Below are positions 1-62,164 of a stretch of DNA of 64,000 nt, piece after piece; the stretch's first letter is position 1, and each line of letters opens with the position of its first letter. A program made the translations under genes and the position numbers. The notes below the pieces were generated by a model. The model had not been told where the DNA came from and searched no databases. It saw only the letters and a program-made list of their open reading frames with translations. The DNA lies in the NCBI GenBank assembly GCA_963695655.1, contig CAVOHG010000001.1:273995-337994 (forward strand), in the 5' to 3' direction. Origin of the DNA: an uncultured Acidobacteriota bacterium. Its GTDB lineage: Bacteria > Acidobacteriota > Vicinamibacteria > Vicinamibacterales > 2-12-FULL-66-21.

Positions 1-136
1 CAATCCACAATCAGTCCTTAGTTGTCAGCAAACGAACTCACCGGTCGCAGCTCTCAGCTCCCAGCACCCGGTTCTTGTCCAACTGGCTAACTGCTAACTG
101 CTGACAGCTGTCAGCAGTCCACTGTCAGCTGTCAGC
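1..136. repeat. heptamer-phased tandem array (TAACTGC/TGACAGC/TGTCAGC units; reverse complement belongs to the NNNCTGA family), cut by window edge
   Basis: Read directly: AACTGGC TAACTGC TAACTGC TGACAGC TGTCAGC AGTCCAC TGTCAGC TGTCAGC in unbroken 7-nt phase at 81-136, with a weaker CAGC-every-7 pattern upstream. Perfect 20-nt palindrome CTGCTGACAGCTGTCAGCAG at 98-117. Ends 6 nt before the argJ stop codon. Confidence 0.8.
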
Positions 137-142
137 TCGATG

Positions 143-9167: not shown

Positions 9168-10220
9168 CTATTGGGGCGCCCGTTCGATCTCGATCGTCGC
9201 CGGGCCCGACAGACGTACGCTCACGACGGTTCCTGCCGGGAGAGTTGCAGCGTTCCGATCGCCAGCCATCACTGCAGCGGACCCGCCGCCGGCGCCGGCG
9301 GCGCCGCCGATGACGGCACCCTTGCCGCCGCCCAGGATCGCACCGAGGATCGCTCCACCGATCGCGGCTCCGCCGATCTTCCTCGCGCTCTCGTTCGACG
9401 GCGAATCACCTTCGCGGATGATCGTCTCGGTGCGCAGCGGCACCTGCCGACCATCTGCAAGAACGAGGGTGTGGAAGCGGACACCGAGGCGCGCCCGCTC
9501 TTTCATCTTGCCGCCACGCTCCACTACGGTGACAGAACCAAGCACTCGTGATCCGGCGGGCACTGCAACGCGCCCGTCCGAGGTCACGTCGCGCGTGACG
9601 CGCGCTTCGACGCGCTCCTCGATCTGCGTGCGCTCCGACGAGAGCGGCGTCTCCACCTGAAGGCCGAGCACCGAAGACGCCGGCAACACGACCTCGTCGA
9701 ACTGAACCTGTCTGGCGCGCGGCTCGCGAGGTTCGGAGGGACGTTCAGGCGCTGGTTCAGGAGCGGGGGCCGCTGCCTGCGCGTCCGCGGCGGGGCGATC
9801 GGAGGTGGCGTTCACCGGTGTCGCCGGGTGTGCCGCGGCAGGCGTCGGATCGGCGCGCGGCGCCGGTACAGGACGCGGCGGATCGGGCGTGCGGCTCGGT
9901 TCCGGTTTGGACACTTTGGACGGTGCGGCGGCGGGTGCCGCAGGCGTCGGCGTGTTCCGCTCCGCCGAAGGACCAGGACCGGGCGACGCAACATTCCGCT
10001 CCGCTGCGGGCGCTGTCGCCGGTTTCGCGGCGGTTGGGGGCGCCTTGTCGATCACCGCTTCCGTCTCGTTCACCGGTGTGGCAGTCGATGCAGGCGGAGC
10101 GGCATTCGTCACGGCAGGGGGCGGTACGTCCCCGTTCTGCCGCACAGCCAAGTACGCACCCCCCGCGGCCGCGGTGACACAACCGGTCGCGAGCAGCACG
10201 GCAAGAATCCTGGTATTCAT
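9168..10220 (-). CDS. hypothetical exported protein: lipobox-like signal, Pro/Ala-rich spacer, C-terminal domain with glycine zipper
   Basis: MNTRILAVLLATGC..., about 150 aa of P/A/T-rich low complexity, then an ordered domain ending GGAAIGGAILGAILGGGKGAVIGGAAGAGGG. ATG 10220 preferred over TTG 10223. No family recognised. Confidence 0.6.
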   Translation of the reverse strand: MNTRILAVLLATGCVTAAAGGAYLAVRQNGDVPPPAVTNAAPPASTATPVNETEAVIDKAPPTAAKPATAPAAERNVASPGPGPSAERNTPTPAAPAAAPSKVSKPEPSRTPDPPRPVPAPRADPTPAAAHPATPVNATSDRPAADAQAAAPAPEPAPERPSEPREPRARQVQFDEVVLPASSVLGLQVETPLSSERTQIEERVEARVTRDVTSDGRVAVPAGSRVLGSVTVVERGGKMKERARLGVRFHTLVLADGRQVPLRTETIIREGDSPSNESARKIGGAAIGGAILGAILGGGKGAVIGGAAGAGGGSAAVMAGDRNAATLPAGTVVSVRLSGPATIEIERAPQ

Positions 10221-13413: not shown

Positions 13414-16400
13414 TCAGCGCGAGAACACTGCGGCCTGCGACAGCGCCGTCTGCTGCGCGGTCTGGAAATTGACCAACGAGAGCTGGTACTGGAGGCTCGC
13501 CTGCAGCTCGTTGTCTCGCGCGACCGCGAGATCGCGCTGCGCCTGGATCACCAGGAAGCTCGTAGACATTCCAACTTCGAAGCGCTTCTGTTCGGCGTCG
13601 AGACGCTGTTCGGCCAGCTCGCGGCCGAGTTGCGTGGTGTCGATCCGCTGGCGGTTCTGCTCGACCCGCAACGCCGCATCCCGCACCTCACGCACCGCGA
13701 CGAGCTCAACATCCCGCAGGCGGGCTTGCGCCTGGTCCCGTTCAATCCGGGTCCGTGCCAGGTTGGCCTCTTCCGCGCTCTTGCCCAGCGGATACGTCAT
13801 CGTCACGCCGACCGTCCAGGTCGGGAAGTCTGCCTGAAGCACCTGTTCGAGCACCGTGCTCCACGAGGTGTCCTCGCTCCCGACGATGGTTCCCGGAAAC
13901 CCGCCGGTGCGAAGGAGCCTCGATCCGCCAAGCCCGCTGGCGAGGTACGTTGCCTGCACCCGCACGTCCGGCAGCGTGCCGTTTTTCGCCAGCTTGATGT
14001 TCGTCTCCCCGATCGCGATCTGCGTCCGTGCTTCGACCACGTCGGGACGTTCCGCCAGTGCCCGACGGACCGCGGCGTCGAGATCCGGAGGCGTGCCGGG
14101 CGGCGGGACGACGTCCGCAGGTTCAAGCCGTGCGGTCCAGAAATCAGGGCGGTTCGGGTTGAACACCGTTGTCCGCAGGATATCCTCCGCCTGGAGTGCA
14201 TCCGTGCGCGCGACGATGAGATTCTCGCGCCGCTGAGCGACCTCCGCCCGCGCCGCCACGAGATCCAGCGGCGGCGACTGGCCGACGTCGACTCTGGCAC
14301 GGTTGGTTCGCTCGAGCTCCAGTGCAAGGTCGAGCGAGCGCTGCTGCACGCCGACCGACGCATGCGCAGAGACGAGGTTCCAGTACGCGGTTTCGGCCGC
14401 CGCTGCCGTCAGCGCGATCTGGCCCTGCAGCCGCAGATCCGCAATCGTTCGATTCTGCTCTGCGAGCTCGATCTGCCCCCTGACCGGGTCGGTGCGGAAA
14501 TTCCGCAGCAGCGGCTGAGAGAAGACCGCCTGGAGCGAGGACGTGAGCGACGGCGTAAAAGTCGAGAGCGGGTTTGTCGTCGTGGTCCTGGCGGAATCGA
14601 ACGAGACATCGTACGAGGCCCCGCCCCACGGCAGCAGCTGGTTGACCGCCGCTGAACCGGACCAGTAGGCGGTATTCACCGATGAATCGCCAGAGAACAG
14701 GTTCGACGAGGGACTCTGCTGGCTGTTTCGCAGCAGCGCCGTCGACAGGTTCGGCACGTAGGCGCTCCGGGCCTCCGCGACCCGTTCGGCGCTGATCGCG
14801 GGATCGAGCCGGTTTGCCGCGAGGCCGGCGTTGTTCTCGATCGCGAGCCGCACGGCTTCGTCGCGCGTCAGCCGCACCACGGCTCCGCCCTGCTGCGTCG
14901 CCGCAGTCACCTGCGCCTGCGCCCGGGCCTCCGGCGCGGAGAGCAGGACCGCGGCAAGAATCATGGACGCCGTCGCGGCTGCCGTCCGGGCCGTCCGCTT
15001 CCAGCGCCACAACCTCACCTTCGACAAGTCGTCGAAGAGCGAATACGCCACCGGCGTCGCGACGAGCGTCAGGATGAGCACGAGCGACTGGCCGCCGATG
15101 ATGACGAAGCCGATTGCCCGGTTGGTGGCCGCGCCCACGCCGCTCGACAGCACGAGCGGGATCATGCCGGCGACGAACGCGAACGTCGTCATCAGGATTG
15201 GCCGGAGTCGGTCGCGGCTGGCCTGCAGGATGGCGGCGTCGCGATCCATCCCGCGCTCCCGCAGCTGGATCGCGTGGTCGATCTGCAGAATCGAATTCTT
15301 CTTGACCACGCCAAAAAGCACCAGGAGCCCGAGTGCCGAGAAGATATTCAGCGACTGCCGCGTGATGATGATCGACAGCAGCGCGAACGGCAGCGTCAGC
15401 GGAAGCGAGAGCAGGATCGTCACCGGGTGGAGCCAGGATTCGAACTGCGCCGCGAGGATCAGGTACATGAACACCAGCGACAGCGCGAATGCGAGCAGGA
15501 AGTTCTGCGCTGCCCGCGCGAGCTCACGCGATCGGCCAGCGAACCTGGTGCTGTAGCCCGGGCCCATCCCGAGCGACTCCGCCGCCTGGGTCATGGCTGA
15601 CATCGCGGGGGTCTGCGACACTCCGGACTGCAGGCCCGCGAACACCGTCACCTGCCGCTGACGATTCAGCCTGCTGATCTCGGATGGCGCCGTGCCGGGT
15701 GTGAACCTCGCGATATTGTCGAGGGGCACGCTCCCCAGCCGGCCCGACGGAACCGTCATCTGCCCGATCGCCTCGGCCGACTGCCGATCTCCCTCGACGG
15801 CGCGTACGTGCACCTCGTACTGCTCCCCGCCCTCGTTGTACGTCGTCACCTGATCGCCTCCCACCAACAGTCGCAGCGCCTCCGCCGCGTCGGACACCTG
15901 GATGCCGAGGTCCGCCGCCTTCATTCGATCCAGATTGACGGACAGTTCCGGTTTGCCGACGTTCAGCGACGTATCGACGTCGACGACACCGGGCTCCTTT
16001 TTCACCGCCTCGGCGATCGCGTTCGCGTACCGCTCGAGCGCCTTGAGATCGGGTCCGTTGATCGTGAACTGGATGTCCGCGTTCTGGTTGCCGCCGCCGC
16101 CAATCGTGGCGACCGGGCGAACGCCGGTACGGAGGTTTGTTGTCGCGATCTGCGGCAGCACGTTCTCGCGGACGTCGTTCATCACCTCGAACTGATCGCG
16201 CTTGCGCTCCTTGACGCCCTTGAGCCGGACATACACGGTCCCGAGGTTCTGGGTGCGTGCCGGATCGTCGCCGACGGAAACGAGCGTGTACTCCACCTCC
16301 CGCAGCTGCCGGATCCTGGTGGCGAGCCGATTCGCGATGATCTCGGTGGCCTCCAGGCTCGTGCCTTCTGGCGCCCGCAGCCCGACTTCGAATTCCGACT

Positions 16401-18090
16401 GGTCGTCATTCGGCAGGAAATTCTTGTTCGCGACCATGAACAGCGGCACGCTGCTGAGCAGCACGAGAACCGCGATCCCGGCGATCGCGAGCCGATGCGC
16501 CAGCGACCACTTGAGGATCGCCGTGTACCCGGCATCGAGCGGACGGAAGAACCGGGAATCCTTCGAGTCGTGCTCGGGAATCTCATGTCCGGTTGCGTCT
16601 TCCCGGCGCGGACGCATCTTGATCCAGCGCGCCGCGAGCATCGGCGTGAGGGTGAAGCTGACCAGCAGCGACACCAGGATCGCGAACGACATCGTGAACC
16701 CGAAGCTGGTCATGAAGCGGCCGACGATGCCGCCCATGAATCCAACCGGGACGAAGATCGCGATGAGCGACAGCGTCGTCGCCATGACCGCCAGCCCGAT
16801 TTCGCGCGTCGCCTCGACCGCCGCCTGCGCCGGTGGCCGGCCCTTCTCTTCGACGAACCGGTAGATGTTCTCGAGAACGACGATCGCATCGTCTATGACG
16901 ATGCCGACCGCGAGCGTGAGCGCCAGCATCGTCATCGAATTGAGCGTGAAGCCCTGGTACCAGATCAGGCCGAAGGTGGCGATGATCGAGGTCGGGATGG
17001 CGATGGCCGCGATGATCGTCGAACGCCAGTTCCAGAGGAACACCAGCACGACACCGGCGGCGAGGATGGATCCGAAGATCAGATGTTCGTCGACGCTCCG
17101 GATGGAGGCCTTGATGAACTCGGACATGTCGCGGACGACCCGGATGTCATACCCGGGCGGCACCAGCGGCTTCAGATCCGCGAGCTTCTCGTTCACCGCC
17201 TCGACGACCGCGACGGTGTTCGTACCCGACTGTCGCCGCACCGTCACGAGCACGGTCGGCTCGCCGTTGAGGCTCGCCTTGGTTTCGGCCTCGGCCATCG
17301 AATCTTCGACGGTGGCGACGTCGCGGAGCTGAACCGCGTGCCCGGCCTGCTGCCGGACGACGATGTTGCCGAACTCGGCGACGGACTGGACCCGTCCGCG
17401 CGTGCGGAGAGTCATTGCCGTCGCGCCCTGTTCGACCCGCCCGCCGGGAATCTCCGCGTTCTGCGACTGGAGCGCGCGTGAGACGTCGGTCACCGTCAGG
17501 TTGTAAGCGCGCAGCCGGGCGGCATCGAGCTGGATGTTGATTTGCCGTGAGCGGCCACCGGACACGACCACCTGACCCACGCCGTTGACGCTTTCGAGCT
17601 GCCGCCGCAGCGTCTTGTCCGCGTACTCGGTGATGTCGCGCACCGGCTTCCTCGCCGAAACCGCGAGCGTAAGGACCGGCGCCGCATCCGGATCGAACTT
17701 CTCGACCGTCGGCTGATCGATGGTCCTGGGGAGCAGCGGGAGCACCCGGTTCACCCGGTCGCGCACTTCCTGCGCCGCGATGTCGGCGTCCTTCTCGAGA
17801 AGGAACGAGATGATGACCTGCGAGACGCCTTCAGACGAACTCGATCGGAGCTCGTCGATCGCGCTGATGGTGTTGACCGCTTCCTCGATCTTGTCGGTGA
17901 TTTCGGTCTCGACCTCCTCGGGCGCCGCGCCGGGCAGCCGGGTCGTGACGACAACCGTCGGGAAGTCGACCTTGGGAAAACGATCGAGGCCGAGGCGCGT
18001 GAATGCGAACGCGCCGATGACGGTCAGCGACAGGATGAGGACGCTTGCAAAGACTGGACGTTTGACCGAAATCGCTGCGAGCCACTGCAT
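13414..18090 (-). CDS. RND (HAE1/AcrB-type) efflux permease continuing in frame into a TolC/OprM-type outer-membrane factor
   Basis: Single 1558-codon frame. Residues 1-1042 (18090-14965) are a complete 12-TM RND permease ([20 protein letters not shown]...[13 protein letters not shown]). From ATG 14964 (or GTG 15018) comes a signal-peptide-like [18 protein letters not shown] plus about 500 aa of OMF repeats (...[26 protein letters not shown]...). No stop at the junction. Confidence 0.8.
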
Positions 18091-18110: not shown

Positions 18111-18158
18111 AGTCTGAGTCCGATAGCTGATAGCTGATAGCTGATAGCTGATAGCTGT
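18111..18158. repeat. heptamer array AGTCTGA-GTCCGA-(TAGCTGA)x4-TAGCTGT between MFP stop and RND start
   Basis: Read directly. Fills most of the 68-nt gap between stop 18159-18161 and ATG 18090. The units TAGCTGA/AGTCTGA also occur in the 22.2-22.5 kb array. Confidence 0.85.
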
Positions 18159-19358
18159 TTAGCGCTTGCGCACTGCCGTGCCGTCCGCGATCCTGCCCTT
18201 CGGCTCGGCCGCGACGACGTCACCCGCGGCGACACCGCTCGTGATCTCGACCTGGTTCCCGACGGTTTCCCCGAGCGTGACGATCCGCTCCTCGGCCTTG
18301 TCGCCCTTGACGACGTAGACACGGCTGGTGCCCGCGACCGTCTCGACCGCTGAGGCCGGGACGAGGAGGGCGGGGGCGGACTGCGGCTGTTGAATCAATG
18401 CCGTCGCAAACAGTCCGGGCTTGAGACGTCCATCGGGGTTGCTGGCGAGCGCCTCCACCGTGAGTGCGCGCTGATCGGAACGCAGCGACGGCGAGACGTA
18501 ACGCACTGTCGCATTGAAGATCTCTCCCGGGTAGGCCTCGACTGCGACCCGAACCGGCTGACCGACCTTGATGAGCGAAACGGACTGTTCCGGGATCGTG
18601 AGCTCGATCCGCATGGGATCCACGCGCACGATGGTCGCGACACGGGCGCCGCGCGTGACGTAGTCGCCGACGCTGACCACCCGCTCCGCCACCTGGCCCG
18701 AGAAAGGCGCGCGGATGGAGGTGTCGGCCGCGGCCTTGCGCGCGAGCACGACCCGCGCTCTCGCCGCTTCGAGCGAGCGGTAGGACTGCTGCGCAACGTT
18801 CTGCGCCATCTGGTACTGCTGGCGCGCGGCGTCGACCTGCGTCTTGCGCTGGTCGTACTCGCTCTTCGAGACGACCTTCTGTTCGAGCAGCGAGCCGATG
18901 CGCGCGAACTCCGCCTCGGCGAGGTCCAGCGCCGCCTTCGCATTCAGCGCGTCAGGAACACGCGTCGGATCGAACGGCTGGCCTTCGGCGAGCCCGAGCC
19001 GTGCTTCGAGTTGTGCCGCATTGGCTTCGGCCTCGAGCAGCTGCGCCGACGTCTCCGCCGGCGAAATGCGGACGAGCATCGCCCCTTGCGCAACCCGCGA
19101 GCCGCGTTCGACCGGTGTCTCGATGACGCGGCCGGCGGCCTCGGCACTCACTTCGGCCTGCTCGTCCGCGAGCAGGGAGCCAGTTACGCGCAGATAACGA
19201 TCGATCGGCCGGCTTTCGACCGCCGCCGTGGCCACGGCAAGCGGCTCTGGCTTGGGCGCCGCGTTCACCGTGCTGGTATCGCCACCGCAGCCTGCCGCGG
19301 TCGCTGCGAGCGCGATCGCCGTGATACCTGCGAGGACAGAACGTCGCTGAGCTGTCAT
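18159..19358 (-). CDS. efflux RND periplasmic adaptor (MFP, HlyD/AcrA family) lipoprotein
   Basis: Lipoprotein signal [24 protein letters not shown], alpha-hairpin ([17 protein letters not shown]...), beta-barrel/MP domains. ATG 19358 preferred over the track GTG 19379. Confidence 0.85.
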
Positions 19359-20105: not shown

Positions 20106-20423
20106 ATGCTCGATTCCATGGAGAAAATCAGCCCGGAGAGGGCAAAAGACCTATTGCAGAAGCTCCCGGGATGGACCCTGGCAGGCGAAGCGATTTCGCG
20201 GCAGTTTACATTTGCCGGATTCCCCGACGCCGTTGCCTTCATCGTCCGTCTCGGATTTACGGCAGAGGCGGCCGACCATCACCCGGATCTGGCAGTCAAC
20301 TATCGACGCGTGACGGTCACTTACAGCACGCACAGCGAGGGAGGCCTGACCGAGAAGGACTTCGAGGGGGCGTCGGCCGCGAATACCGCCGCAGAATCGC
20401 TTGTCGGGGGCGACCGGCGCTGA
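20106..20423 (+). CDS. 4a-hydroxytetrahydrobiopterin (pterin-4a-carbinolamine) dehydratase
   Basis: 105 aa. LPGWTL...ISRQFTFAGFPDAVAFIVRLGFTAEAADHHPDLAVNYRRVTVTYSTH matches the PCD/DCoH fold signature. Confidence 0.85.
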   Translation: MLDSMEKISPERAKDLLQKLPGWTLAGEAISRQFTFAGFPDAVAFIVRLGFTAEAADHHPDLAVNYRRVTVTYSTHSEGGLTEKDFEGASAANTAAESLVGGDRR

Positions 20424-20429
20424 CGCGGT

Positions 20430-20717
20430 TCAGCCGATGGGGAAGATCGTGTCGAGGCCGTCCGCAGGCCTCGGAATCACGTGAACGCCGACGAGCTCGC
20501 CGACCCGTCGAGCCGCTGCGGCGCCCGCGTCGGTTGCTGCTTTGACCGATGCGACGTCGCCTCTCACCATCGCGGTGACCAGGCCGGCATCGACCTTCTG
20601 CCAGCCGACGAACACGACGTTGGCCGCCTTGACCATCGCGTCCGCCGCTTCGATCATCCCGACCAGGCCGCGGGTCTCGACCAATCCAAGCGCCTCGCCG
20701 GGCAGTTCGTTGGGCAT
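20430..20717 (-). CDS. bacterial microcompartment shell protein, BMC-H (Pfam00936-type, PduA/EutM/CcmK-like)
   Basis: 95 aa. [77 protein letters not shown] aligns residue-for-residue with canonical BMC-H sequences. Confidence 0.9.
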
Positions 20718-20720
20718 ATT

Positions 20721-20898
20721 TCGGTTCGGGGTTCGGGGTTCCGGGGTTCGGGTTCAAGGTCCGATGCTTGAATCGTCGCTTCCGCCTTCAGGCCGACTTC
20801 GCGGCTCCGGCCTTCAGCTACAACACTGTGTGGCTTCCGCCTTCAGGCGGAAGAAACCCCGATTCCGGTACGACTGGAAACTGGAAACTGGTACTCGT
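20721..20898. repeat. composite repeat spacer: (GGGGTTC)n array, duplicated CTTCCGCCTTCAGG motif with a perfect hairpin, (NAACTGG)n array
   Basis: TCGGTTC GGGGTTC GGGGTTC CGGGGTTC GGGTTCA at 20721-20756. CTTCCGCCTTCAGG at 20780-20793 and 20834-20847, the second forming CTTCCGCC-TTCA-GGCGGAAG (20834-20853). CGACTGG AAACTGG AAACTGG at 20871-20891. Confidence 0.8.
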
Positions 20899-20922
20899 AA
20901 CGGAGTAGTTGCGCTCAGTCTA

Positions 20923-22101
20923 CTACGCAATCCGTCCGCGAGCCGACACCTCCAGCTGCTCCACGATCCCGGCGCCGTCAACCAGCCACACATCGTCGAC
21001 CAGGTTCGACACGACGCACGAGTGGTTTGGTACGACGCGTACGAGGTCACCAGGTTTGAGCCGTGAGGGGCGCGAAGATCTGACGACCGCGTGCTCTTCT
21101 GAGAGGCGCTCGATCACGAGCGAAGGATCCGGCGTCACCGAGTCGAGTGCATCGAAGACGATGCCGTGGCCCGGCTGTGGACCCGGTCCGCGGACCAGGT
21201 CACTCGAGAGTGTCTTGCTGCCGCAATCCAGGATGATCCGGTCACTGCCGTGTGTCGTCACGACTCGGGCAAGGACCGTCAATGCGCAGTCGTCCCACGA
21301 CGCGGAGCCAAGGGCGACCTGCATGCGGTCGTAATAAACGTAGTTACCCGGACGCAGCTCAGTAATGCCATCGACTACGGCGCTGAACCGGGCGGTTGGC
21401 GTCGCGCCGACGCTGATCTCGTCCACCTGCACACCGAGCGTCCTGACCTGTTCGGCCAGTGACGTCAGGACCGCCCCCTCGAGCTGCGCTATGGCCTGCA
21501 CTTCACCCGGTGAGGCTGCGGCATATGCGTGCCCGGCGTGACTCAGCAGCCCGCGAAATCGAAGTCCCGGCAGGTTGGCGACCCGGGCGATGAATGCCGC
21601 GGCATCAGGCGCTCCGGGGTCGATTCCGCAGCGATGGAGACCGACATCCACCTTGACCAGGACGTCGACGAGACGACCAGCGGCCGCGAGGCGCGCCGAC
21701 CATTCGCCGGCGACCGCAGGGTTGTCGACGATGAAGGACAGTCTCGTGCGCTCGACGAGCGCCAGCACGCGATCGATGTTGACCGGGTTGAGTGGATAGG
21801 CGATGCGGATGTCCTCCAACCCGGCCGCGGCAAAGATCTCGGCCTCGCCGAGCTTCGCGCAGGTGATGCCGCGTGCGCCGCGGGTCAGCTGCTGCCTTGC
21901 GATGGCGACGCTCTTGTGAGTCTTGGCGTGAGGCCGGAGTGCTCGTCCAGTCGCGTCGACAGCGGCCTGCATCCTGTCGATATTGCGCGCGAGGCGCGAC
22001 TGTTCGATGAGCACCGAGGGGGTTGGCAAGTCCGTGAGGCGCACGGGCCAGTCTAGCGCGCGGGAATCGGCCAGTCCAACACGCGTTGGCAGGGGGTTCA
22101 C
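20923..22101 (-). CDS. D-TA family PLP enzyme (D-threonine aldolase / D-serine dehydratase-like, alanine-racemase N-terminal fold)
   Basis: 392 aa. LPTPSVLIEQSRLARNIDRM...LRPHAKTHKSVAIARQQ (PLP-Lys), C-terminal D-serine-dehydratase-like domain. GTG start at 22101. Confidence 0.8.
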   Translation of the reverse strand: MNPLPTRVGLADSRALDWPVRLTDLPTPSVLIEQSRLARNIDRMQAAVDATGRALRPHAKTHKSVAIARQQLTRGARGITCAKLGEAEIFAAAGLEDIRIAYPLNPVNIDRVLALVERTRLSFIVDNPAVAGEWSARLAAAGRLVDVLVKVDVGLHRCGIDPGAPDAAAFIARVANLPGLRFRGLLSHAGHAYAAASPGEVQAIAQLEGAVLTSLAEQVRTLGVQVDEISVGATPTARFSAVVDGITELRPGNYVYYDRMQVALGSASWDDCALTVLARVVTTHGSDRIILDCGSKTLSSDLVRGPGPQPGHGIVFDALDSVTPDPSLVIERLSEEHAVVRSSRPSRLKPGDLVRVVPNHSCVVSNLVDDVWLVDGAGIVEQLEVSARGRIA

Positions 22102-22107
22102 TTCAAG

Positions 22108-22465
22108 TAACCAGTCGCCAGTCGCCAGTCGCCAGTCGCCAGTCAGCCAGGAGCCAGGGGCCAGGGGCCAGGAGCCAGTAACCAGTAACCAGTCGCCAGT
22201 ATCCGGAAGCCGAGGCGGGAAGCTGAAAAACTGTTAGCTCATAGCTGATGTCTGAGAACTGAGAACTGATTGCTGAGAACTGATTGCTGAGAACTGATTG
22301 CTGAGAACTGAATGCTGAGAACTGATTGCTGAGAACTGATTGCTGAGAACTGATTGCTGAGAACTGATTGCTAACTGCTGAGAACTGAGAGCTGAGAACT
22401 GAATGCTGACTGCTGAAAACTGATTGCTGATAGCTGAAGTCTGATAGCTGTCGGCTGTCAGCTGC
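22108..22465. repeat. bipartite heptamer array: 13 x NNNCCAG (22108-22199), degenerate linker, 35 x NNNCTGA (22221-22465)
   Basis: Segmented by hand. The second block has 35 consecutive 7-mers without any indel, 29 ending CTGA, mostly alternating GAACTGA/TTGCTGA. Fills the whole gap between the DUF1501 stop and the D-TA start. Confidence 0.92.
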
Positions 22466-22466
22466 C

Positions 22467-23700
22467 TCAGAACATCCCGAGTGCCCGCCCTTCCGTAAAT
22501 CCGGGGAACACTGCGTGCGTGTTCGTCAGGCCGAGATGCCCGCGCAGGACTTCCGAGAACACCGTGCGGAAGTCGGTGGTCACGGCGAGGTCGCGGCCGT
22601 CGTGCCGCTGCTCGAGTGCGAGGCCTGGCCATTGCCCATACACGCGGCCGCCGCGGACGCGCCCGCCGAGCACCAGCATCGCGTTCCCGTGGCCGTGGTC
22701 GGTGCCGCGGTTGCCATTCTCGACCACCGCCCGGCCGAACTCCGACATGGTGAGAATCACCACGTCCTGCATGCGGTCGCCGAGATCGCGGACGAGGGCG
22801 GCAAGGCCGCGACCGAGATCGTCCAGCCGACCGGCGAGCTGACCGGTTGCGGCGCCCTGGTTGACATGGTGATCCCAGTTCCCTGACTCTGCGAACGCGA
22901 TCTCGAGACCGACGTTGGCCTTGACGAGCTGTGCGATCTGGCGCAGTGCCTGGCCGAATGCCGATCTCGGGTAATCCGCGCCGTTAGCGGGCGTGTACTG
23001 CTGGGGATTTGCCGCGTCCAACATGCGGACGGCTTCGAACGCTTCCTGGCCGGTCGTGTGCAGGACGCTCGCCGCGGCGGCGGCGTACTGGTCCTCGAAG
23101 GCCGAACGAGTGGTTCCACTCGCGGATCCTCCGCGGATACCGAAGTCGCTGATCTGGCCGATCGCCAGCGCGGGTTCCCTGCCCTGGAGTGCGCGCGGCA
23201 GTTGCGGCGCGAGCGCGACGGCGCGAAACGGGGTTGCGGCCTCGTGCTCGCGGGCGTGGAGAAACCGGTTCAGCCAGCCGTCGGTCGGTACTCTTGATGC
23301 CCGGCGTGGCTGTTTCCATGTAGTCCTGCGCATCGAAATGCGACCGCGTCGCATCAGGAGAGCCGCAGGCGTGCACCACCGCGAGCTGGCCCGCCGCATA
23401 CCACGGTGCCAGCGGCGAGAGCCGCGGGTGGAATCCGAAGAAGCCGTCCAGGTCGATTGCCGCATCCGCGCTGCCTCGCGGTGGTGCGATCGCCAGCGTC
23501 GGTCGCGCCGCATAGTAGTTGCGTTCACCAAACGGCACGATCATGTTCAGGCCGTCGACGGCGCCGCGCTGGAAAATCGTGATCAGCGTCTTGCCGCCGG
23601 GGTTCGCACTCGCCACCGCACGGGCGACGAACGCCGGTGCGAAGCCGAGGCTCACGAGCGCGAGTCCACCGTTCTTGAGGAAGATGCGGCGTGAAACCAT
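22467..23700 (-). pseudogene. DUF1501 (sulfatase-like) protein with Tat-type signal, one apparent +1 frameshift
   Basis: N-terminal MVSRRIFLKNGGLALVSLGFAPAFVARAV...DAQDYMETATPGIKSTD in one frame. DGWLNRFL...NGNRGTDHGHGNAMLVLGG...TDFRTVFSEVL in the next. The junction lies at a tandem GTCGGTCG (23280-23287); deleting one GTCG restores ...KSTDGWLNRF. Confidence 0.8.
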
Positions 23701-23706
23701 GGCCCT

Positions 23707-25320
23707 CTACTTTCGCTGGAATTCTGGCGAGCCGAGCAGCAAGGCGATTCCCTGCGCCGGATCGGCGGCGCGCGCGACCGTGGACCGTGTCGACTCGGCG
23801 ATATCCTCGGCCAGCACGTCCCGTGCGATACCATCGCGTGCCCGGTCGATGGTGTCCGGCGGCCCGGCCGTCCACGGTGCGATGACTCCTTTGACGTCTC
23901 CGCGCGTCAGCGCAACCGCGAAGTTCATACGGTTGAGCAGCGCGCCGGTGTTGACCCATGCGTCGGCGCGGTCCGTGTACCCGGTCGGCGGCTGACAGTA
24001 ATAAAGCGGCATCCCCATCTCCCGCGTCGCGCGGACAAGGGGCTGCGCGTTGTTCGCGTCGAACCCGCTCGCACGGATTGCACTCGCCACGAAGTCGAAT
24101 GGTGTCTTGACCTTGGCGCGATAGGCCGCTGGTGCGAAGAACTCCGGAGCAGTCACGATCGTGCGGACCACGGCCCGGATATCCCCCCGGGTGGCTGCAA
24201 ACGTGGCTGCCGCACGATCGACGAGTGCCGTAGGTGGATCGTCGGCGACGAACCGGCGCGCGAGCTTCGTCGCGATGAACCTGGCGGTGGCGGGATGCGC
24301 CGCCAGGATGTCGAGCACCTGCTCGCCATCGCTCTCTTCACCACCCGCGCGAATGTGATGGCCGAGGACTGTTTTGCTGCCGTCGTCGTGCATCCGCCGA
24401 TCGAAACGAAACGAACCACCCTGCCGGGGTGTCGAAATCGTCCAGCCAGTGAAGGCCCGTGCGACTTCTTCGACGTCATGCTGGGTGTAGCCACCATCGA
24501 CGCCGAGCGTGTGCAGCTCCATCAGTTCGCGAGCGTAGTTCTCATTCAGTCCTCGCGGGCGCTGGGCGGTGCCTGTAGCCTGGGTTGGCCGGCCGCGCCG
24601 AGGGTTCTTCATCTCGGCCTCGGCGGTAGCGCTTTGCCAGTTATCCAGGTAGAAGAGCATCGCGGGACTGCGTGCAGTGGCGCCCAGAAGGTCACGGAAC
24701 CTGCCGAGCACGTGTGGCCGGATCGCGTCGCGTTCGTACTCGGTCAGATAGATCCGCGTCGCCCCTTTGCCAGCGAATACGTTGAAGTGATTGAACCAGA
24801 AATCGACCATCACTTCTTCGAGCTGGCGTTCGCTGTATGCCGCGCGCAGCACCTTCTGTTCGGCAAGCTCAGAAAGGACCTTTCTTTCCTGCGTCATCAA
24901 CGTACGTTCGAGCGGTGTGCGCGAACGCTGGTTCATCGTGGTGACCTCGGGGGCCGCAGTCCCGTCCACCTGCAGGCGCGCCGTGCGCCGCCGTTCCATC
25001 ATGGCGGGCACGAAATAACGCTCAGCGAGCTGCTTCGTACTCAGGTTGAGCGTGAGGAGTGGGCCGAGACGCGTCGCGAGATCGGCGTTGGGGATTGAAC
25101 CCGGGTCGAGCTGCTGGTCGATGTAGCGAGCCAGCCCGAGATGCCGGATTCGCTCGACATCGGCAGGCGCGGGACCGAACCCGATCCGGTTGAGCACGTG
25201 AACGATGGTCTTGTCGTCAGGGTGGGCCGGGACTGCCGAACGTGCTGGCGCTGCCGGCAGCACCGCCGTGCTACCCGCGAACAGCGCGACAGAGAGCCGG
25301 AGTGCAGCTCGTACGACCAT
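23707..25320 (-). CDS. DUF1800 domain protein (usual partner of DUF1501)
   Basis: VDFWFNHFNVFAGKG...SPAMLFYLDNWQS...LMELHTLGVDGGYTQHDV are DUF1800 hallmarks. Signal-like MVVRAALRLSVALFAGSTAVLPA from ATG 25320 (the track start 25356 is possible). Confidence 0.8.
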   Translation of the reverse strand: MVVRAALRLSVALFAGSTAVLPAAPARSAVPAHPDDKTIVHVLNRIGFGPAPADVERIRHLGLARYIDQQLDPGSIPNADLATRLGPLLTLNLSTKQLAERYFVPAMMERRRTARLQVDGTAAPEVTTMNQRSRTPLERTLMTQERKVLSELAEQKVLRAAYSERQLEEVMVDFWFNHFNVFAGKGATRIYLTEYERDAIRPHVLGRFRDLLGATARSPAMLFYLDNWQSATAEAEMKNPRRGRPTQATGTAQRPRGLNENYARELMELHTLGVDGGYTQHDVEEVARAFTGWTISTPRQGGSFRFDRRMHDDGSKTVLGHHIRAGGEESDGEQVLDILAAHPATARFIATKLARRFVADDPPTALVDRAAATFAATRGDIRAVVRTIVTAPEFFAPAAYRAKVKTPFDFVASAIRASGFDANNAQPLVRATREMGMPLYYCQPPTGYTDRADAWVNTGALLNRMNFAVALTRGDVKGVIAPWTAGPPDTIDRARDGIARDVLAEDIAESTRSTVARAADPAQGIALLLGSPEFQRK

Positions 25321-44658: not shown

Positions 44659-44828
44659 ACGCGCTGCCTGCCACTCATCATGAGGAACGAGCCGACGCTG
44701 TGAGCTCTAAGTCGAGCGCCGACGAGCAGTTGATGGGAGATCAGCGAAAGAGGACGGTGTGCACGGAGCCGAGCCGAGTCGCAGAATCTGAACTGACCCG
44801 GCGTATGCTGGTTACGAGTTTTTTGCAG

Positions 44829-44933
44829 TCGCCAGTCGCCAGTCGCCAGTCGCCAGTCGCCAGTCGCCGAGTCCCGAGCCCAGCCGAACCCCGAACCCCG
44901 AATCCCCGATCCCCGAATCCCGACAGCGAAGCC
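44829..44933. repeat. 15 phased heptamers: (TCGCCAG)x5 grading into CGAACCC/CGAATCC units
   Basis: Read directly. Lies between the helicase 5' region and the stop (44936) of the coiled-coil gene. TCGCCAG is identical to the 22.1-kb array unit, and GAACCCC is the complement of the 20.7-kb GGGGTTC unit. Confidence 0.88.
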
Positions 44934-44935
44934 CC

Positions 44936-47510
44936 CTACCCCTCCGCCCTCACCTGATCGAGTGCGCGCTTCGAGAGAATGAGTGGCGGCGCGCCGCCCT
45001 GCACGCGCGGAGCGGTCGACGCCGGAACTCGCACCCGTCGGATTCTGCACCCGCGGCCGTAGGTCACGCCGGCCACCTGCGGTGGCACCGACAGCCCGGC
45101 CATCAACTCGCGGATCTCGTCGGCAGGCGTCTCCGCCGGTTTGCTCGCGGCCGAGGGGAGGCCCGAGGCCGGCAGCCGATGTGTACTCGGCGCGGCAAGC
45201 TGCCGGGCCCAGAAGGCGAGCGGCATCAGCCGCAGCAGGGACGGGGCATTCTGAGGGCCGATCCTGAAATCCGCGAACGGATCGGCGGCCCGTGCCGCCG
45301 CGGCCGCCTCGGCCGCGACTCTCGCCCGTTCCTTCCGCGCTCGTTCGCGCTCCGCTTCGGCGGCCTCGATTCGTTGTTGCTCGCGCTCGGCGGCGAGTCG
45401 CTCCTCTTCCCTGGCGGCTGCGGCTTCGGCCTCCAGGCGCAGCCGTTCCCGCTCCGCTGCCGCTTCGGCCTCGAGCCGGATGCGCTCACGTTCTGCCGCC
45501 GCCTCAGCCTCGATTCGCCGTCGCTCGCGGAGCGCCGCCGCCTCGGCCTCGAGGCGCAGGCGCTCGCGTTCGGCCGCGGCTTCGGCTTCGAGCCGCAGGC
45601 GTTCTCTCTCTGCCGCGGCCTCGGCCTCGATGCGCAGCCGCTCGCGTTTCGCGGCGGCCTCGGCCTCGCGTCGCAGATGCTCTTCGCTGGCCGCGGCTTC
45701 GGCAGCGAGACGCACCCGCTCGCGCTCGGCCGCTTCGGCCGCCAGTCTCGCTCGCTCCCGCTCCGCTGCTGCGACGGCTTCAAGCCGCAGCCGTTCGCGC
45801 TCGGCGGCCGCTTCCGCTTCGAGACGAAGCCGTTCACGTTCCTTCGCAGCCTCGGCCTCACGCCGCAGTTGCTCCTTGAGCGCCGCCGCTTCGGCGGCGA
45901 GGCGCGCACGCTCCTCTTCGGCGATCCTGGCGCGCTCACGCTCGGCGGCTGCGATCGCTTCCAGTCGGACCCGTTCGCGTTCGGCAGCAGCGGCTGCCTC
46001 GACGCGGAGTCGTTCCCGTTCTGCCGCCGCCACGGCCTCCCGGCGCGCGCGTTCCTTTTCGGCCGCGGCCAGCGCCTCGAGCCGCTCACGTTCCTTCTTT
46101 GCCGCCGCCTCAGCCTCGAGTCGCTTGCGCTCCTCGGCTTCGGCCCGCTTCCGTTCCGCCGCCGCCCGCGCCTCGGCTTCCTTCCTTGCCGCGGCCTCAG
46201 CCTCGAGGCGCTTGCGCTCCTCGGCCTCGGCGCGCTTCCGCTCCGCGGCCGCCCGGGCCTCGGCTTCTTTCCTTGCCGCGACCTCGGCTTCGAGGCGCTT
46301 GCGCTCCTCGGCTTCGGCCCGTTTCCGTTCCGCCGCTGCCCGCGCCTCGGCTTCCTTTCTTGCCGCGGCTTCAGCCTCGAGGCGCTTGCGTTCCTCGGCC
46401 TCGGCGCGCTTCCGCTCCGCGGCCGCGCGCGCCTCGGCGTCCTTCTTCGCTTTCGCGGCCGCCTCCGCTTCGCGCTTGACACGTTCGGCCTCTGCGGCCG
46501 CGGCTGCTTCGACGCGCCGTCGCTCCTTCTCCGCCGCCGCTGCCTCGCCGCGCAAGCGCTCCTTCTCGGCTGCGGCCGCCTGGCGCCCGCTGCCTCTCCA
46601 CTTCGGCCGCCGCGGCCGCCTCCGCACGGAGGCGCTCCTTCTGCGCCGCGGCAGCGGCCGCGCGCTCCCGCTCGGCTTCGGCAGCAGCCGCGGCTTCGGC
46701 GCGCCGGCGCTCCTTTTCCGCCGCTTTGGCGTCGACGCGCGCGCGTTCGGCCTCCTGCGCCGCCGCCGCTTCCACACGTGCGCGCTCGCGTGCGGCTTCC
46801 TCCTGGCCTCGTGACTGGCTGGTGCGCTGTTCCTGTTCGCGGCGCTGCTCTTCCAGTTCGGCGGCGACCGCAATCGGCGTGGCGGTCACCAGCGGAGCCT
46901 CTGACGAAGCCGGCGCTTCGGCCCGCGCCTCGACGGCTTCTGGAACACTCTCAGTCCGACGCCACTCGAACGGTGACGACCACGAGGAGTCGGACGCAAC
47001 CTCCGCGGTCGTGCCCGCCTCGGCAACAGGTGCATTGCCCGGTCGCGGCTGATCCTGCGCATGCACGGCCCGCGCGATCGTCGTCGGCCCCGCCGCTTTC
47101 AGCTCCGCCGCACGCGTCAGAAAGGTGCCGACTTCGTCCGCGAACATCTTCGGGTCGCAGCCGGTGATGGGCTCTGCGGTCCCCTTCTTCCGCCGAAATT
47201 TCGCCAGCAGGCCACCGGACCCGGCCGGCGCCGCCGCCGGCTCCCCCGGTGACGCGAGCTGCGGGATCGTGTGCGTCTGGACGTGGTCGGCACCGGCGAG
47301 CGTGCGCAGGTGGGCCACCATCTCGTCCTCGTCGCGCGGCGACAGCAGAGCGGTCAGCAGGACGACGTCCGGCACTCGTGCGGCAAGCGCGGCCACCGCG
47401 GCGTCGCGCGAATCGACGACCACGAGCTCCGCACGGATCCGCTCGTGGATCACCCGCGTGAGGATGGCCGCCTGTTTGTGGTCCGGTTCAACTGCGAGTA
47501 CGAGTGCCAC
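44936..47510 (-). pseudogene. FrzS/AglZ-like protein: N-terminal pseudo-receiver domain + very long E/A/R/K coiled coil + C-terminal globular part; one +1 frameshift
   Basis: GTG 47510. VLAVEPDHKQAAILTRVIHERIRAELVVVDSRDAAVAALAARVPDVVLLTALLSP (REC fold, phospho-Asp position is Thr). Repeats such as [29 protein letters not shown] and [13 protein letters not shown]. The two track ORFs (46371-47510 and 44936-46873) join near 46576-46592. Total length is 3n+1. Confidence 0.7.
46107..46455. repeat. four tandem 87-bp (29-codon) repeats inside the coiled-coil gene
   Basis: Unit starts at 46107, 46194, 46281 and 46368 (GCCTCAGCCTCGAG.GCTTGCGCTCCTCGGC...). Shorter 39-bp (13-codon) repeats at about 45290-45900. 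Confidence 0.85.
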
Positions 47511-50443: not shown

Positions 50444-50520
50444 TCACCAGCATCCAGTCTCCAGCTTCCGACCGGGAGCGCGGGGCAACTGGCAACTGGG
50501 AACTGGTAACTGGCAACTGT
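50444..50520. repeat. 11 phased heptamers (TCACCAG CATCCAG TCTCCAG ... CAACTGG CAACTGG GAACTGG TAACTGG CAACTGT) between cpaB stop and cpaC SD
   Basis: Read directly. Starts at the nucleotide after TAG (50441-50443) and ends 3 nt before GAAGGAG (50524-50530). The CCAG and CTGG halves are reverse complements. Confidence 0.88.
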
Positions 50521-50536
50521 TTCGAAGGAGACCCTC

Positions 50537-62094: not shown

Positions 62095-62097
62095 TCG

Positions 62098-62164
62098 AAC
62101 CTCGCAGAACCTCGTAGAACCCGCAGAACCCCGTAGAACCCCGTAGAACCTGTAAAACCTGTCG
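62098..62164. repeat. tandem 9-10-nt array (GCAGAACCTC GTAGAACCC GCAGAACCCC GTAGAACCCC GTAGAACCT GTAAAACCT)
   Basis: Read directly. Lies between the HU terminator and the stop codon (62165) of the convergent histidine kinase. Confidence 0.8.

Follow-up and report, generated by a model that had tools for sequence, protein, structure and literature searches.

The gap between a DUF1501 gene and a D-threonine-aldolase-like (D-TA-like) gene, in a 64,000-nt stretch of DNA from an uncultured soil Acidobacteriota bacterium of the order Vicinamibacterales (contig CAVOHG010000001.1 of assembly GCA_963695655.1, hereafter the window), is filled by two back-to-back arrays of 7-nt units, and the explanation that we favour, with somewhat better than even confidence, is that they are heptanucleotide microsatellites made and reshaped by slippage or unequal exchange. 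The arrays are non-coding and are neither a structured RNA nor a mobile element. A sequence-specific function is most probably lacking, and they serve at most as a variable-length spacer from the upstream open reading frame (ORF) to the downstream promoter. Both flanking genes lie on the minus strand (the gene strand), and the features of the gap, in the direction of these genes, are the following.

22467 to 22469, minus strand: TGA stop of the DUF1501 gene, marking the upstream edge of the spacer in gene-strand direction; relatives conserve the terminal ...GMF*
22221 to 22465, minus strand: array 2, 35 in-register heptamers (245 nt, without indels), NNNCTGA on the plus strand and TCAGNNN on the gene strand
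22200 to 22220, minus strand: linker of 21 nt (3x7), degenerate GCTTCCN-like heptamers
22108 to 22199, minus strand: array 1, 13 units, NNNCCAG on the plus strand and CTGGNNN on the gene strand; Tandem Repeats Finder (TRF) period 7, 12.7 copies
22074 to 22079, minus strand: candidate -35 TTGGAC (from sequence inference), 18 nt upstream of the candidate -10; the block is conserved in relatives of 89-97% identity
22050 to 22055, minus strand: candidate -10 TAGACT, 5 nt before the GTG; a TAnnnT motif is present in most Vicinamibacterales orthologues
22042 to 22044, minus strand: probable start codon GTG of the D-TA-like gene; GTG in 88 and ATG in 26 orthologous sequences

On the plus strand, array 1 reads TAACCAG, (TCGCCAG)x4, TCAGCCAG, GAGCCAG, GGGCCAG x2, GAGCCAG, TAACCAG x2 and TCGCCAG, and array 2 is composed of units including GAACTGA, TTGCTGA and AAACTGA. 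A preliminary description of this DNA, made from its letters alone, had reported 13 and 35 perfectly phased heptamers. The unit counts stand, and the 35 units of array 2 follow one another without an indel, but array 1 contains one 8-mer (TCAGCCAG at 22143-22150) which produces a single 1-nt phase shift. With a linker of exactly 21 nt, array 2 shares the register of the second part of array 1; in the relative L165, a longer GGCTTCC-like run occupies this position. On the gene strand, array 2 begins a few bases past the DUF1501 stop and ends about 180 nt before the D-TA-like start, which gives the order stop, (TCAGNNN)35, linker and (CTGGNNN)13, and when both arrays are read as NNNCTGR units they are mutually inverted. 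The ending CTGA was found in 28 of the 35 heptamers of array 2 (29 had been given before). The centre of this array is (GAACTGA TTGCTGA)n and its edges are degenerate; the alternation of the two units, as previously described, was confirmed by 12 identical unit pairs at lag 2 compared with 4.4 in shuffled order (p<1e-4), and TRF assigned to array 2 a period of 14 with 11.3 copies, listing periods 14, 28 and 42 (score 225). The constant 4-nt core in a 7-nt register, also noted before, is clear from the per-position entropy, which is 0 bits in the CCAG core, 0.2-0.6 bits in the CTGA core and 0.8-1.85 bits at positions 1-3. Chance is excluded as the source of this phasing: a pattern of four phased CTGA cores has 23 matches in the window and one of four phased CCAG cores has 10, and in 100 dinucleotide-preserving shuffles the number was 0 for each.

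Comparison with relatives showed that these arrays are retained in kind and strongly variable in length. The closest genomic relatives of the host are all Acidobacteriota of the order Vicinamibacterales (best D-TA identity 80%), and a scan of metagenomes gave no relative with more than 76% protein identity. Using an exact look-up of the neighbouring bacterial microcompartment (BMC) shell protein, we retrieved seven contigs from other samples (L161-L167) with the same synteny and 89-97% nucleotide identity. Six of them extend into the spacer: five are long ENA contigs, and the sixth is a short JGI contig that starts within the array. Arrays are present in every one of the six, and their cores, orientation and bipartite order agree with those of the window, in the common layout stop-(TCAGNNN)n-(CTGGNNN)n-promoter. 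From stop to promoter, the window has 386 nt and the five long relatives have 327, 216, 215, 288 and 184 nt, a length polymorphism (184-386 nt) whose unit steps are blurred by long-read indel noise. Across the window and these relatives, the approximate counts range from 29 down to 1 for TCAG and from 18 to 7 for CTGG, and the mixes of variants differ; for example, L163 has TCAGTTC x6, and in L165 CCAGTTT x5 replaces the TCAG units. In distant relatives, the putative D-TA promoter overlaps the 3' end of DUF1501, with almost no spacer (about 15-25 nt) and without arrays, and the D-TA-to-BMC spacer is only 15-19 nt long (TAGTAGAMT, 8-11 nt, ATG). Intermediate spacer lengths (45, 49, 104 and 172 nt) were found in the wider clade of the window. 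From the short array-free spacers and the intermediate lengths, it follows that the arrays are lineage-specific expansions of minimal spacers and not required parts of the operon.

Expansions of this period are common in the lineage. The period-7 scan that had been proposed for the genome and its relatives was applied to 142 Acidobacteriota sources comprising 1.49 Mb (the window, genome loci and metagenome loci), and 132 period-7 arrays were detected, 110 of which (83%) lie within the 11% of the sequence that is intergenic, so that these non-triplet units are kept out of coding DNA. Intergenic arrays with periods of 5, 6, 8, 9 and 10 numbered only 4, 4, 16, 16 and 2 in the same survey. The density was about one array per 11 kb sampled, adjoining all kinds of genes, and with a stricter threshold, arrays were found in 33 of the 58 Vicinamibacterales genome loci and in none of the 21 outgroup loci. 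The 110 intergenic arrays represent 75 distinct canonical units, so that what is fixed is the period rather than the sequence.

Several other identities for the gap were considered and rejected. As the preliminary description had stated, it holds no gene: the ORF 22234-22632(-) of 132 aa has no Pfam match and belongs to no protein family, and it overlaps the 3' end of DUF1501 in another frame. Since no frame of TCAGNNN contains a stop codon, this ORF stays open across the array, which agrees with its earlier explanation as a spurious minus-strand frame opposite plus-strand TGA codons in all three frames. A structured RNA was rejected; the Rfam search suggested before gave 0 matches at or above the gathering threshold in the whole window, and folding was no better than that of shuffles (z = +0.33 and +0.62 for the two strands). 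The earlier distinction from palindromic repeats and CRISPR was also upheld, since 22108-22465 has no inverted repeats and no hairpin-forming palindromic unit as expected of repetitive extragenic palindromes (REP), bacterial interspersed mosaic elements (BIME) or miniature inverted-repeat transposable elements (MITE), and since CRISPR arrays have repeats of about 23-47 nt with unique spacers and the units here are 7 nt long, contiguous and spacer-free. A consensus scan found no sigma-70 promoter or intrinsic terminator inside the array on the gene strand, and no intrinsic terminator was predicted in 20300-23800, compared with 1.8 expected. In the sense RNA, the UCAG and CUGG cores can pair, and the minimum free energy (MFE) structure pairs arrays 1 and 2; however, a selected long inter-array hairpin is unsupported, since the duplex energy did not surpass that obtained after the variable positions had been shuffled (p = 0.44 and 0.89).

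The position of the arrays relative to the downstream gene can be judged from its orthologues. The D-TA-like gene encodes Ala_racemase_N and D-ser_dehydrat domains, and when about 140 orthologous loci were aligned, GTG (88) or ATG (26) was found at codon 20 of the long D-TA ORF, preceded in most orthologues by a TAnnnT motif (TACACT, TAGACT or TAAACT) ending 5-8 nt upstream. The tblastn matches to this ORF also mostly start near residue 20. The true start is thus most probably the GTG at 22044-22042 rather than 22101, as previously assigned, and the mRNA is probably leaderless. An exact look-up of the 392-aa D-TA ORF gave no match, which is probably explained by a true start 19 codons further downstream. 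The candidate -35 and -10 and the leaderless GTG, all downstream of the arrays, would place the arrays upstream of the D-TA promoter (from about -64) and outside any 5' untranslated region (5'UTR). On the other side of the gap, the DUF1501 gene (22467-23531, minus strand) appears frameshifted relative to its own N-terminal part (22984-23700, with a TAT-type N-terminus), so that two frames overlap, and this split is probably long-read indel noise and not a sign of a pseudogene. A leaderless signature was also seen at other genes: the TAnnnT motif peaks 6 nt before the predicted start (62 compared with a background of about 3) and occurs 5-9 nt before the start in 112 of 717 genes. The BMC shell gene is preceded in dozens of loci (L001-L160) by TAGTAGAMT, in which the D-TA stop overlaps a -10-like box, followed by 8-11 nt and ATG.

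We favour slippage or unequal exchange because array 2 has a 14-nt higher-order unit and a homogeneous centre with degenerate edges, and because the spacers differ about two-fold at 89-97% identity. By this process, heptamer arrays would be born, lengthened, shortened and re-homogenised through replication slippage or unequal exchange, with size steps of 7 nt and, in array 2, also of 14 nt. They would be tolerated outside coding DNA only, and a lineage-wide bias to 7-nt units would be typical of Vicinamibacterales intergenic DNA. The phasing, its departure from chance, the restriction to intergenic DNA, the spread within the lineage, the variety of units, the polymorphic lengths, the 14-nt unit and the lack of structure are direct results of the analysis; the slippage process, the promoter assignment and functional neutrality are inferred from them. 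Published heptamer simple sequence repeats (SSRs) show matching traits, including intergenic location, length that varies strongly between close relatives, and mixing of different heptamers (PMC4692102, PMC4679880).

There are nevertheless several points which weigh against slippage as the whole explanation. The preliminary description had held that such a pattern is not what slippage produces, and although the 14-nt unit, the homogeneous centre and the turnover of spacer length do fit slippage, the objection is justified for the core: uniform mutation combined with slippage does not predict an invariant 4-nt core, and this invariance is unexplained. In the interior of array 2, at least 8 substitutions are estimated at the three variable positions and 1 at the four core positions, and in array 1 at least 5 at the variable positions and 0 in the core; core and orientation are also kept among relatives with differing copy numbers. 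Lineage-wide, units containing CTGA are enriched (16 compared with 5.6 expected). Among arrays in co-directional spacers, 22 of 64 lie within 6 nt of the upstream stop compared with 8.9 expected (p<2e-4), and the ratio of G>C to C>G arrays on the sense strand is 22:13 for stop-proximal and 6:21 for start-proximal arrays (Fisher p=0.002). This contrast persists without the arrays that flank the D-TA gene (16:4 stop-proximal and 2:8 start-proximal, p=0.004), as does the excess next to stop codons. Abutment on stop codons and the strand rule hint at selection or a directional mechanism; arrays 1 and 2 themselves do not follow the strand-composition rule. Finally, two features of the data call for caution: the survey genes were called with a home-made codon-score caller, and several of the close relatives are indel-noisy long-read assemblies, which makes their unit counts approximate.

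Many of these points would be accounted for if the arrays were functional cis-elements, that is, a multimeric binding platform, in DNA or transcript, for a lineage factor that reads the CTGR core once per 7 nt and uses the free positions as spacers. A target geometry comparable to a core every 7 nt is known from the HutP site, in which UAG triplets are 4 nt apart. The core entropy of about 0 bits against 0.8-1.85 bits elsewhere in the unit, the retention of core, orientation and bipartite order at 89-97% identity despite the turnover of copy number, the same cores at five other sites in the window, the enrichment of CTGA-containing units (16 against 5.6) and the non-random placement and strand rules all argue for such a platform. 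We nevertheless consider it unlikely, since the 110 intergenic arrays have 75 different units, the orthologous spacers of other relatives are wholly array-free, the TCAG copy number runs from about 1 to 29 and no candidate binding factor was identified. In addition, clustering of variation in a few positions gave no signal as a general trait of the lineage's arrays (8 testable arrays, p=0.46), and the pattern of a core plus variable positions may be specific to the CTGA/CCAG unit family. A more speculative idea, to which we give a little less credence than to either the platform or the Rho-dependent termination discussed below, is that the fixed core in its 7-nt register is read or written by an unknown factor (a DNA- or RNA-binding multimer, or a repair or replication activity), and that the arrays are the footprint of a shared undiscovered system and thus more than passive products of slippage. 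The inverted bipartite order kept through copy turnover, the abutment of arrays on stop codons and the occurrence of the motif families ACTGG/CCAGT, CTGA and GGGGNTC in Vicinamibacterales, cyanobacteria, Beggiatoaceae and Xanthomonas would fit this idea.

Two further proposals assign the arrays a role in expression of the adjacent genes. The stop-proximal (UCAGNNN)n could be a Rho-loading (rut-like) untranslated tract that ends DUF1501 transcription and insulates the leaderless promoter from read-through. The gene-strand tract is indeed 245 nt long, untranslated and richer in C than in G (TCAGCAA and TCAGTTC have 2 C and 1 G each), with a YC dimer per 7 nt and no excess structure; the lack of a predicted intrinsic terminator in 20300-23800 (1.8 expected) and the apparent own promoter of the downstream gene also suit this role. 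However, across the lineage G exceeds C on the sense strand in most stop-proximal arrays (22:13, or 16:4 when the D-TA locus is left aside), which is the opposite of a rut site, and L165 has almost no TCAG units here. Insulation is also not required in the array-free relatives, whose D-TA promoter overlaps the 3' end of DUF1501, and Rho loading seems to us rather unlikely, slightly more so than the binding platform. We regard it as improbable, to a greater degree than all of these, that the arrays act as an expression rheostat like the hmw tract of Haemophilus influenzae, in which copy number would tune D-TA through the geometry upstream of the promoter or through an RNase III-processed UCAG:CUGG hairpin. 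The copy number does differ between close relatives, the arrays are inverted NNNCTGR tracts whose UCAG cores pair with CUGG on the sense RNA in the MFE structure, and hmw sets a precedent with a transcribed heptamer tract, a hairpin and RNase III (PMC12721329). Yet the arrays are situated upstream of the putative -35, outside the interval from promoter to start codon, the stability of the fold does not exceed that of shuffles (z = +0.33), the inter-array duplex energy does not improve on that with shuffled variable positions (p = 0.44 and 0.89), and arrays occur about once per 11 kb beside all kinds of genes and not at contingency loci only. As for an artefact of long-read metagenome assembly or sequencing, which the preliminary description had named as a possible refutation, the window and L161-L165 do show many broken genes, typical of indel noise, and the single 8-mer of array 1 could be such an error. 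The arrays themselves are very hard to explain in this way, since they are present at the same site in all six contigs that reach the spacer (five ENA assemblies from other samples and the short JGI contig starting inside the array), and at orthologous and other sites in dozens of unrelated metagenome-assembled genomes and metagenome contigs.

Period-7 repeats occur at six further sites in the window (37-138, 18114-18167, 20717-20756, 20873-20901, 44818-44925 and 50475-50523). The preliminary description had assigned the same unit types to all six; this holds for five, which have CTGA/CCAG-type units, but a distinct family with G-runs (GGGGTTC/GGGGATTC) makes up 20717-20756 and part of 44818-44925. 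Their arrays are as follows.

37 to 138, no strand assigned: short heptamer arrays of mixed type (CAGCTCC, AACTGCT, GCTGTCA), just past the argJ stop at 143
18122 to 18157, minus strand: (GATAGCT)x5, TCAGCTA on the gene strand, of the array 2 unit type; begins at the stop of an HlyD-family gene, upstream of an RND pump gene
20717 to 20756, minus strand: (GGTTCGG)n, GAACCCC on the gene strand, of the G-run family; abuts the ATG of the BMC shell-protein gene
20873 to 20901, minus strand: (ACTGGAA)x2.7, CCAGTTT on the gene strand, about 20 nt past the stop of the D-TA-like gene
44826 to 44923, plus strand: (CAGTCGC)x6.7, the array 1 unit, then (CCGAACC)x5.6; just downstream of the stop of a repeat-protein ORF, 44936-46873(-)
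50484 to 50519, plus strand: (GGCAACT)x5, CTGGCAA-type on the plus strand, between cpaB-like (SAF domain) and cpaC-like (BON and Secretin domains) genes

Copy number varies at these sites too: TCAGCTA between the HlyD and RND genes has 3-4 copies in the relatives L162 and L164 (range 3-5), and the D-TA-to-BMC spacer contains 3-11 GAACCCN units among relatives. In relatives, inverted pairs of heptamer arrays are common, such as CGGGACT.../...AGTCCCG, CCCTAAT.../...GATTAGG and TCGCCAG.../...AACTGGA (L014 6711-6829; L017 1418-1570; L001 ~9850-9930), and long hairpins could arise from them, in contrast to the pair in the window. Other stop-abutting arrays have Shine-Dalgarno-like units (AGGAGNC, CGGGAGN, TAGGAGT and GAAGGTA; L022 3950-3986, L040 1607-1634, L158 852-893, L052 5204-5239) and span the entire stop-to-start spacer, as if a ribosome-binding site had been multiplied.

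Some neighbouring features were recorded in addition. Between the heptamer arrays of the D-TA-to-BMC spacer, a REP-like palindrome, CTTCCGCC-TTCA-GGCGGAAG, is present at 20779-20798 and 20834-20853; its core CCGCCTTCAGGCGG recurs in seven unrelated loci of the order (L013, L052, L053, L083, L099, L103 and L133), and L166 and L167 carry a duplication of the surrounding block. The lone BMC-domain shell protein (20430-20717, minus strand, 95 aa) is 100% identical in the seven contigs L161-L167, with DNA that is only 89-97% identical, and its synteny with the D-TA-like enzyme and a pterin-4a-carbinolamine dehydratase is conserved across Vicinamibacterales. The repeat-protein ORF 44936-46873(-) encodes 645 aa, about 400 of which are Ala/Glu/Arg repeats (DNA periods of 39, 87 and 174 nt); it has no Pfam match and may encode a coiled-coil protein. 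A non-heptamer tandem array with periods of 10, 19 and 29 (GAACCTCGTA-like) lies between convergent genes at 62097-62160, a location of the type that the heptamers also occupy. The ORF 13414-18090(-), of 1558 aa, joins a full AcrB-type pump (ACR_tran) to an outer-membrane factor (OEP) domain and is either a gene fusion or the result of a sequencing error that removed a stop codon; in relatives, each part has a gene call of its own.

With these arrays, Vicinamibacterales, an abundant but little-studied soil lineage, joins the few bacteria known to have many heptamer microsatellites between their genes. The density of the arrays, the replicated positional rule, the series from a minimal spacer to a 386-nt array and the unexplained invariant core are the points that deserve attention. 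In practice, heptamer arrays break short-read assemblies and yield spurious ORFs, and they could be used as markers in strain typing. Why 7-nt units are preferred and how the invariant core arose are modest questions which these genomes could help to address.

Heptamer repeats have been described in several other bacteria, and our literature search found no account of such arrays in Acidobacteria. The comparison with the short tandemly repeated repetitive (STRR) heptamers of heterocystous cyanobacteria, which the preliminary description had drawn, is a fair one. Mazel et al. reportedly described these in 1990, with the units CCCCAGT, TTGGTCA and CAACAGT. Both are intergenic tandem heptamers with several unit families per genome, and one STRR family carries a CCAGT/ACTGG motif, as do units here (CCAGTCG, AACTGGN). 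The canonical STRR units, in contrast, are the consensus of 0 of the 110 intergenic arrays, and the host is a Vicinamibacterales acidobacterium and not a heterocystous cyanobacterium, differing in phylum and G+C content.

The view that no equivalent had been described in GC-rich non-cyanobacterial genomes does not hold, given the arrays of Xanthomonas (PMC4692102) and the TAACTGA arrays of Beggiatoaceae and Bacteroidetes (PMC4679880). More generally, Mrazek et al. (Mrazek, Guo & Shah, 2007), as relayed by PMC4679880 and PMC4692102, found heptanucleotides to be the most abundant class of long SSRs (LSSRs) in most genomes, and proposed a link of heptamers to the DNA segment contacted by the polymerase, with slippage as their origin; longer runs were more frequent in large genomes of >60% G+C, according to PMC4692102. 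To the extent that these accounts relay the LSSR class, with units of 5-11 nt, our arrays resemble it in their head-to-tail 7-nt units (13 and 35, with one 1-nt indel), their length beyond chance, their variation in length among close relatives and their mostly intergenic location. They differ in that Acidobacteriota/Vicinamibacterales are outside the ten LSSR-richest genomes as relayed by PMC4679880, and in that the array here mixes unit variants around a fixed 4-nt core with a 14-nt higher-order unit.

In GC-rich Xanthomonas, Rehm et al. (2015) described intergenic GGGAATC heptamer arrays, together with a strand and position rule for G-rich heptamers in Xanthomonas and Nostoc and quadruplex formation by GGGAATC and GGGGA(C/T)T units (PMC4692102). 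The two systems are alike in several respects: each has a GC-rich non-cyanobacterial host, the arrays are intergenic and mostly between co-directional genes, and their length varies between close relatives (PMC4692102). As in that system, the sense strand is G-rich just past stops and C-rich just before starts across our lineage (PMC4692102), and the fact that this rule holds here strengthens the case that period-7 arrays reflect a general, unexplained property of replication or gene boundaries. This G-run type, with at least 3 G per unit and at least 4 units, is represented nearby by the arrays 20717-20756 and 44884-44923 (GGGGTTC/GGGGATTC). Arrays 1 and 2, in contrast, lack G-runs except in two GGGGCCAG units, and G-quadruplex formation is therefore inapplicable to them.

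A further counterpart is the TAACTGA array, found by MacGregor (2015) in Beggiatoaceae, Cyanobacteria and some Bacteroidetes with up to 43 copies, often mixed with other heptamers (PMC4679880), and with 7-nt indels between strains (PMC4679880). The units are nearly equal (GAACTGA or AAACTGA here), but TAACTGA itself is the consensus of only 1 of the 110 lineage arrays. In the BOGUAY genome (Cand. Maribeggiatoa, Beggiatoaceae), the TAACTGA repeats run forward, a few nucleotides upstream of start codons (PMC4679880), whereas the tract in the window comes after a stop codon and has CTGA on the strand antisense to the genes on either side.

Among the systems compared, the (ATCTTTC)n tract of H. 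influenzae hmw1A/hmw2A is the sole heptamer case with an experimentally shown mechanism. This phase-variable tract has 11-63 copies and varies between strains (PMC12721329, PMC8262952). This transcribed tract separates the promoter from the start codon and, together with a G-rich arm, makes a hairpin that RNase III cleaves, and expression is inversely proportional to the repeat number (PMC12721329). Our tract differs in its likely position upstream of the candidate promoter, and its UCAG:CUGG cores pair in the MFE structure, yet the fold is not more stable than those of shuffles and the variable positions add no complementarity. What the two share is a heptamer SSR whose copy number varies between close strains or relatives. 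In conclusion, repeats of this kind have already been described in cyanobacteria, Xanthomonas and other bacteria, and what is new here is the host lineage, not the type of element.

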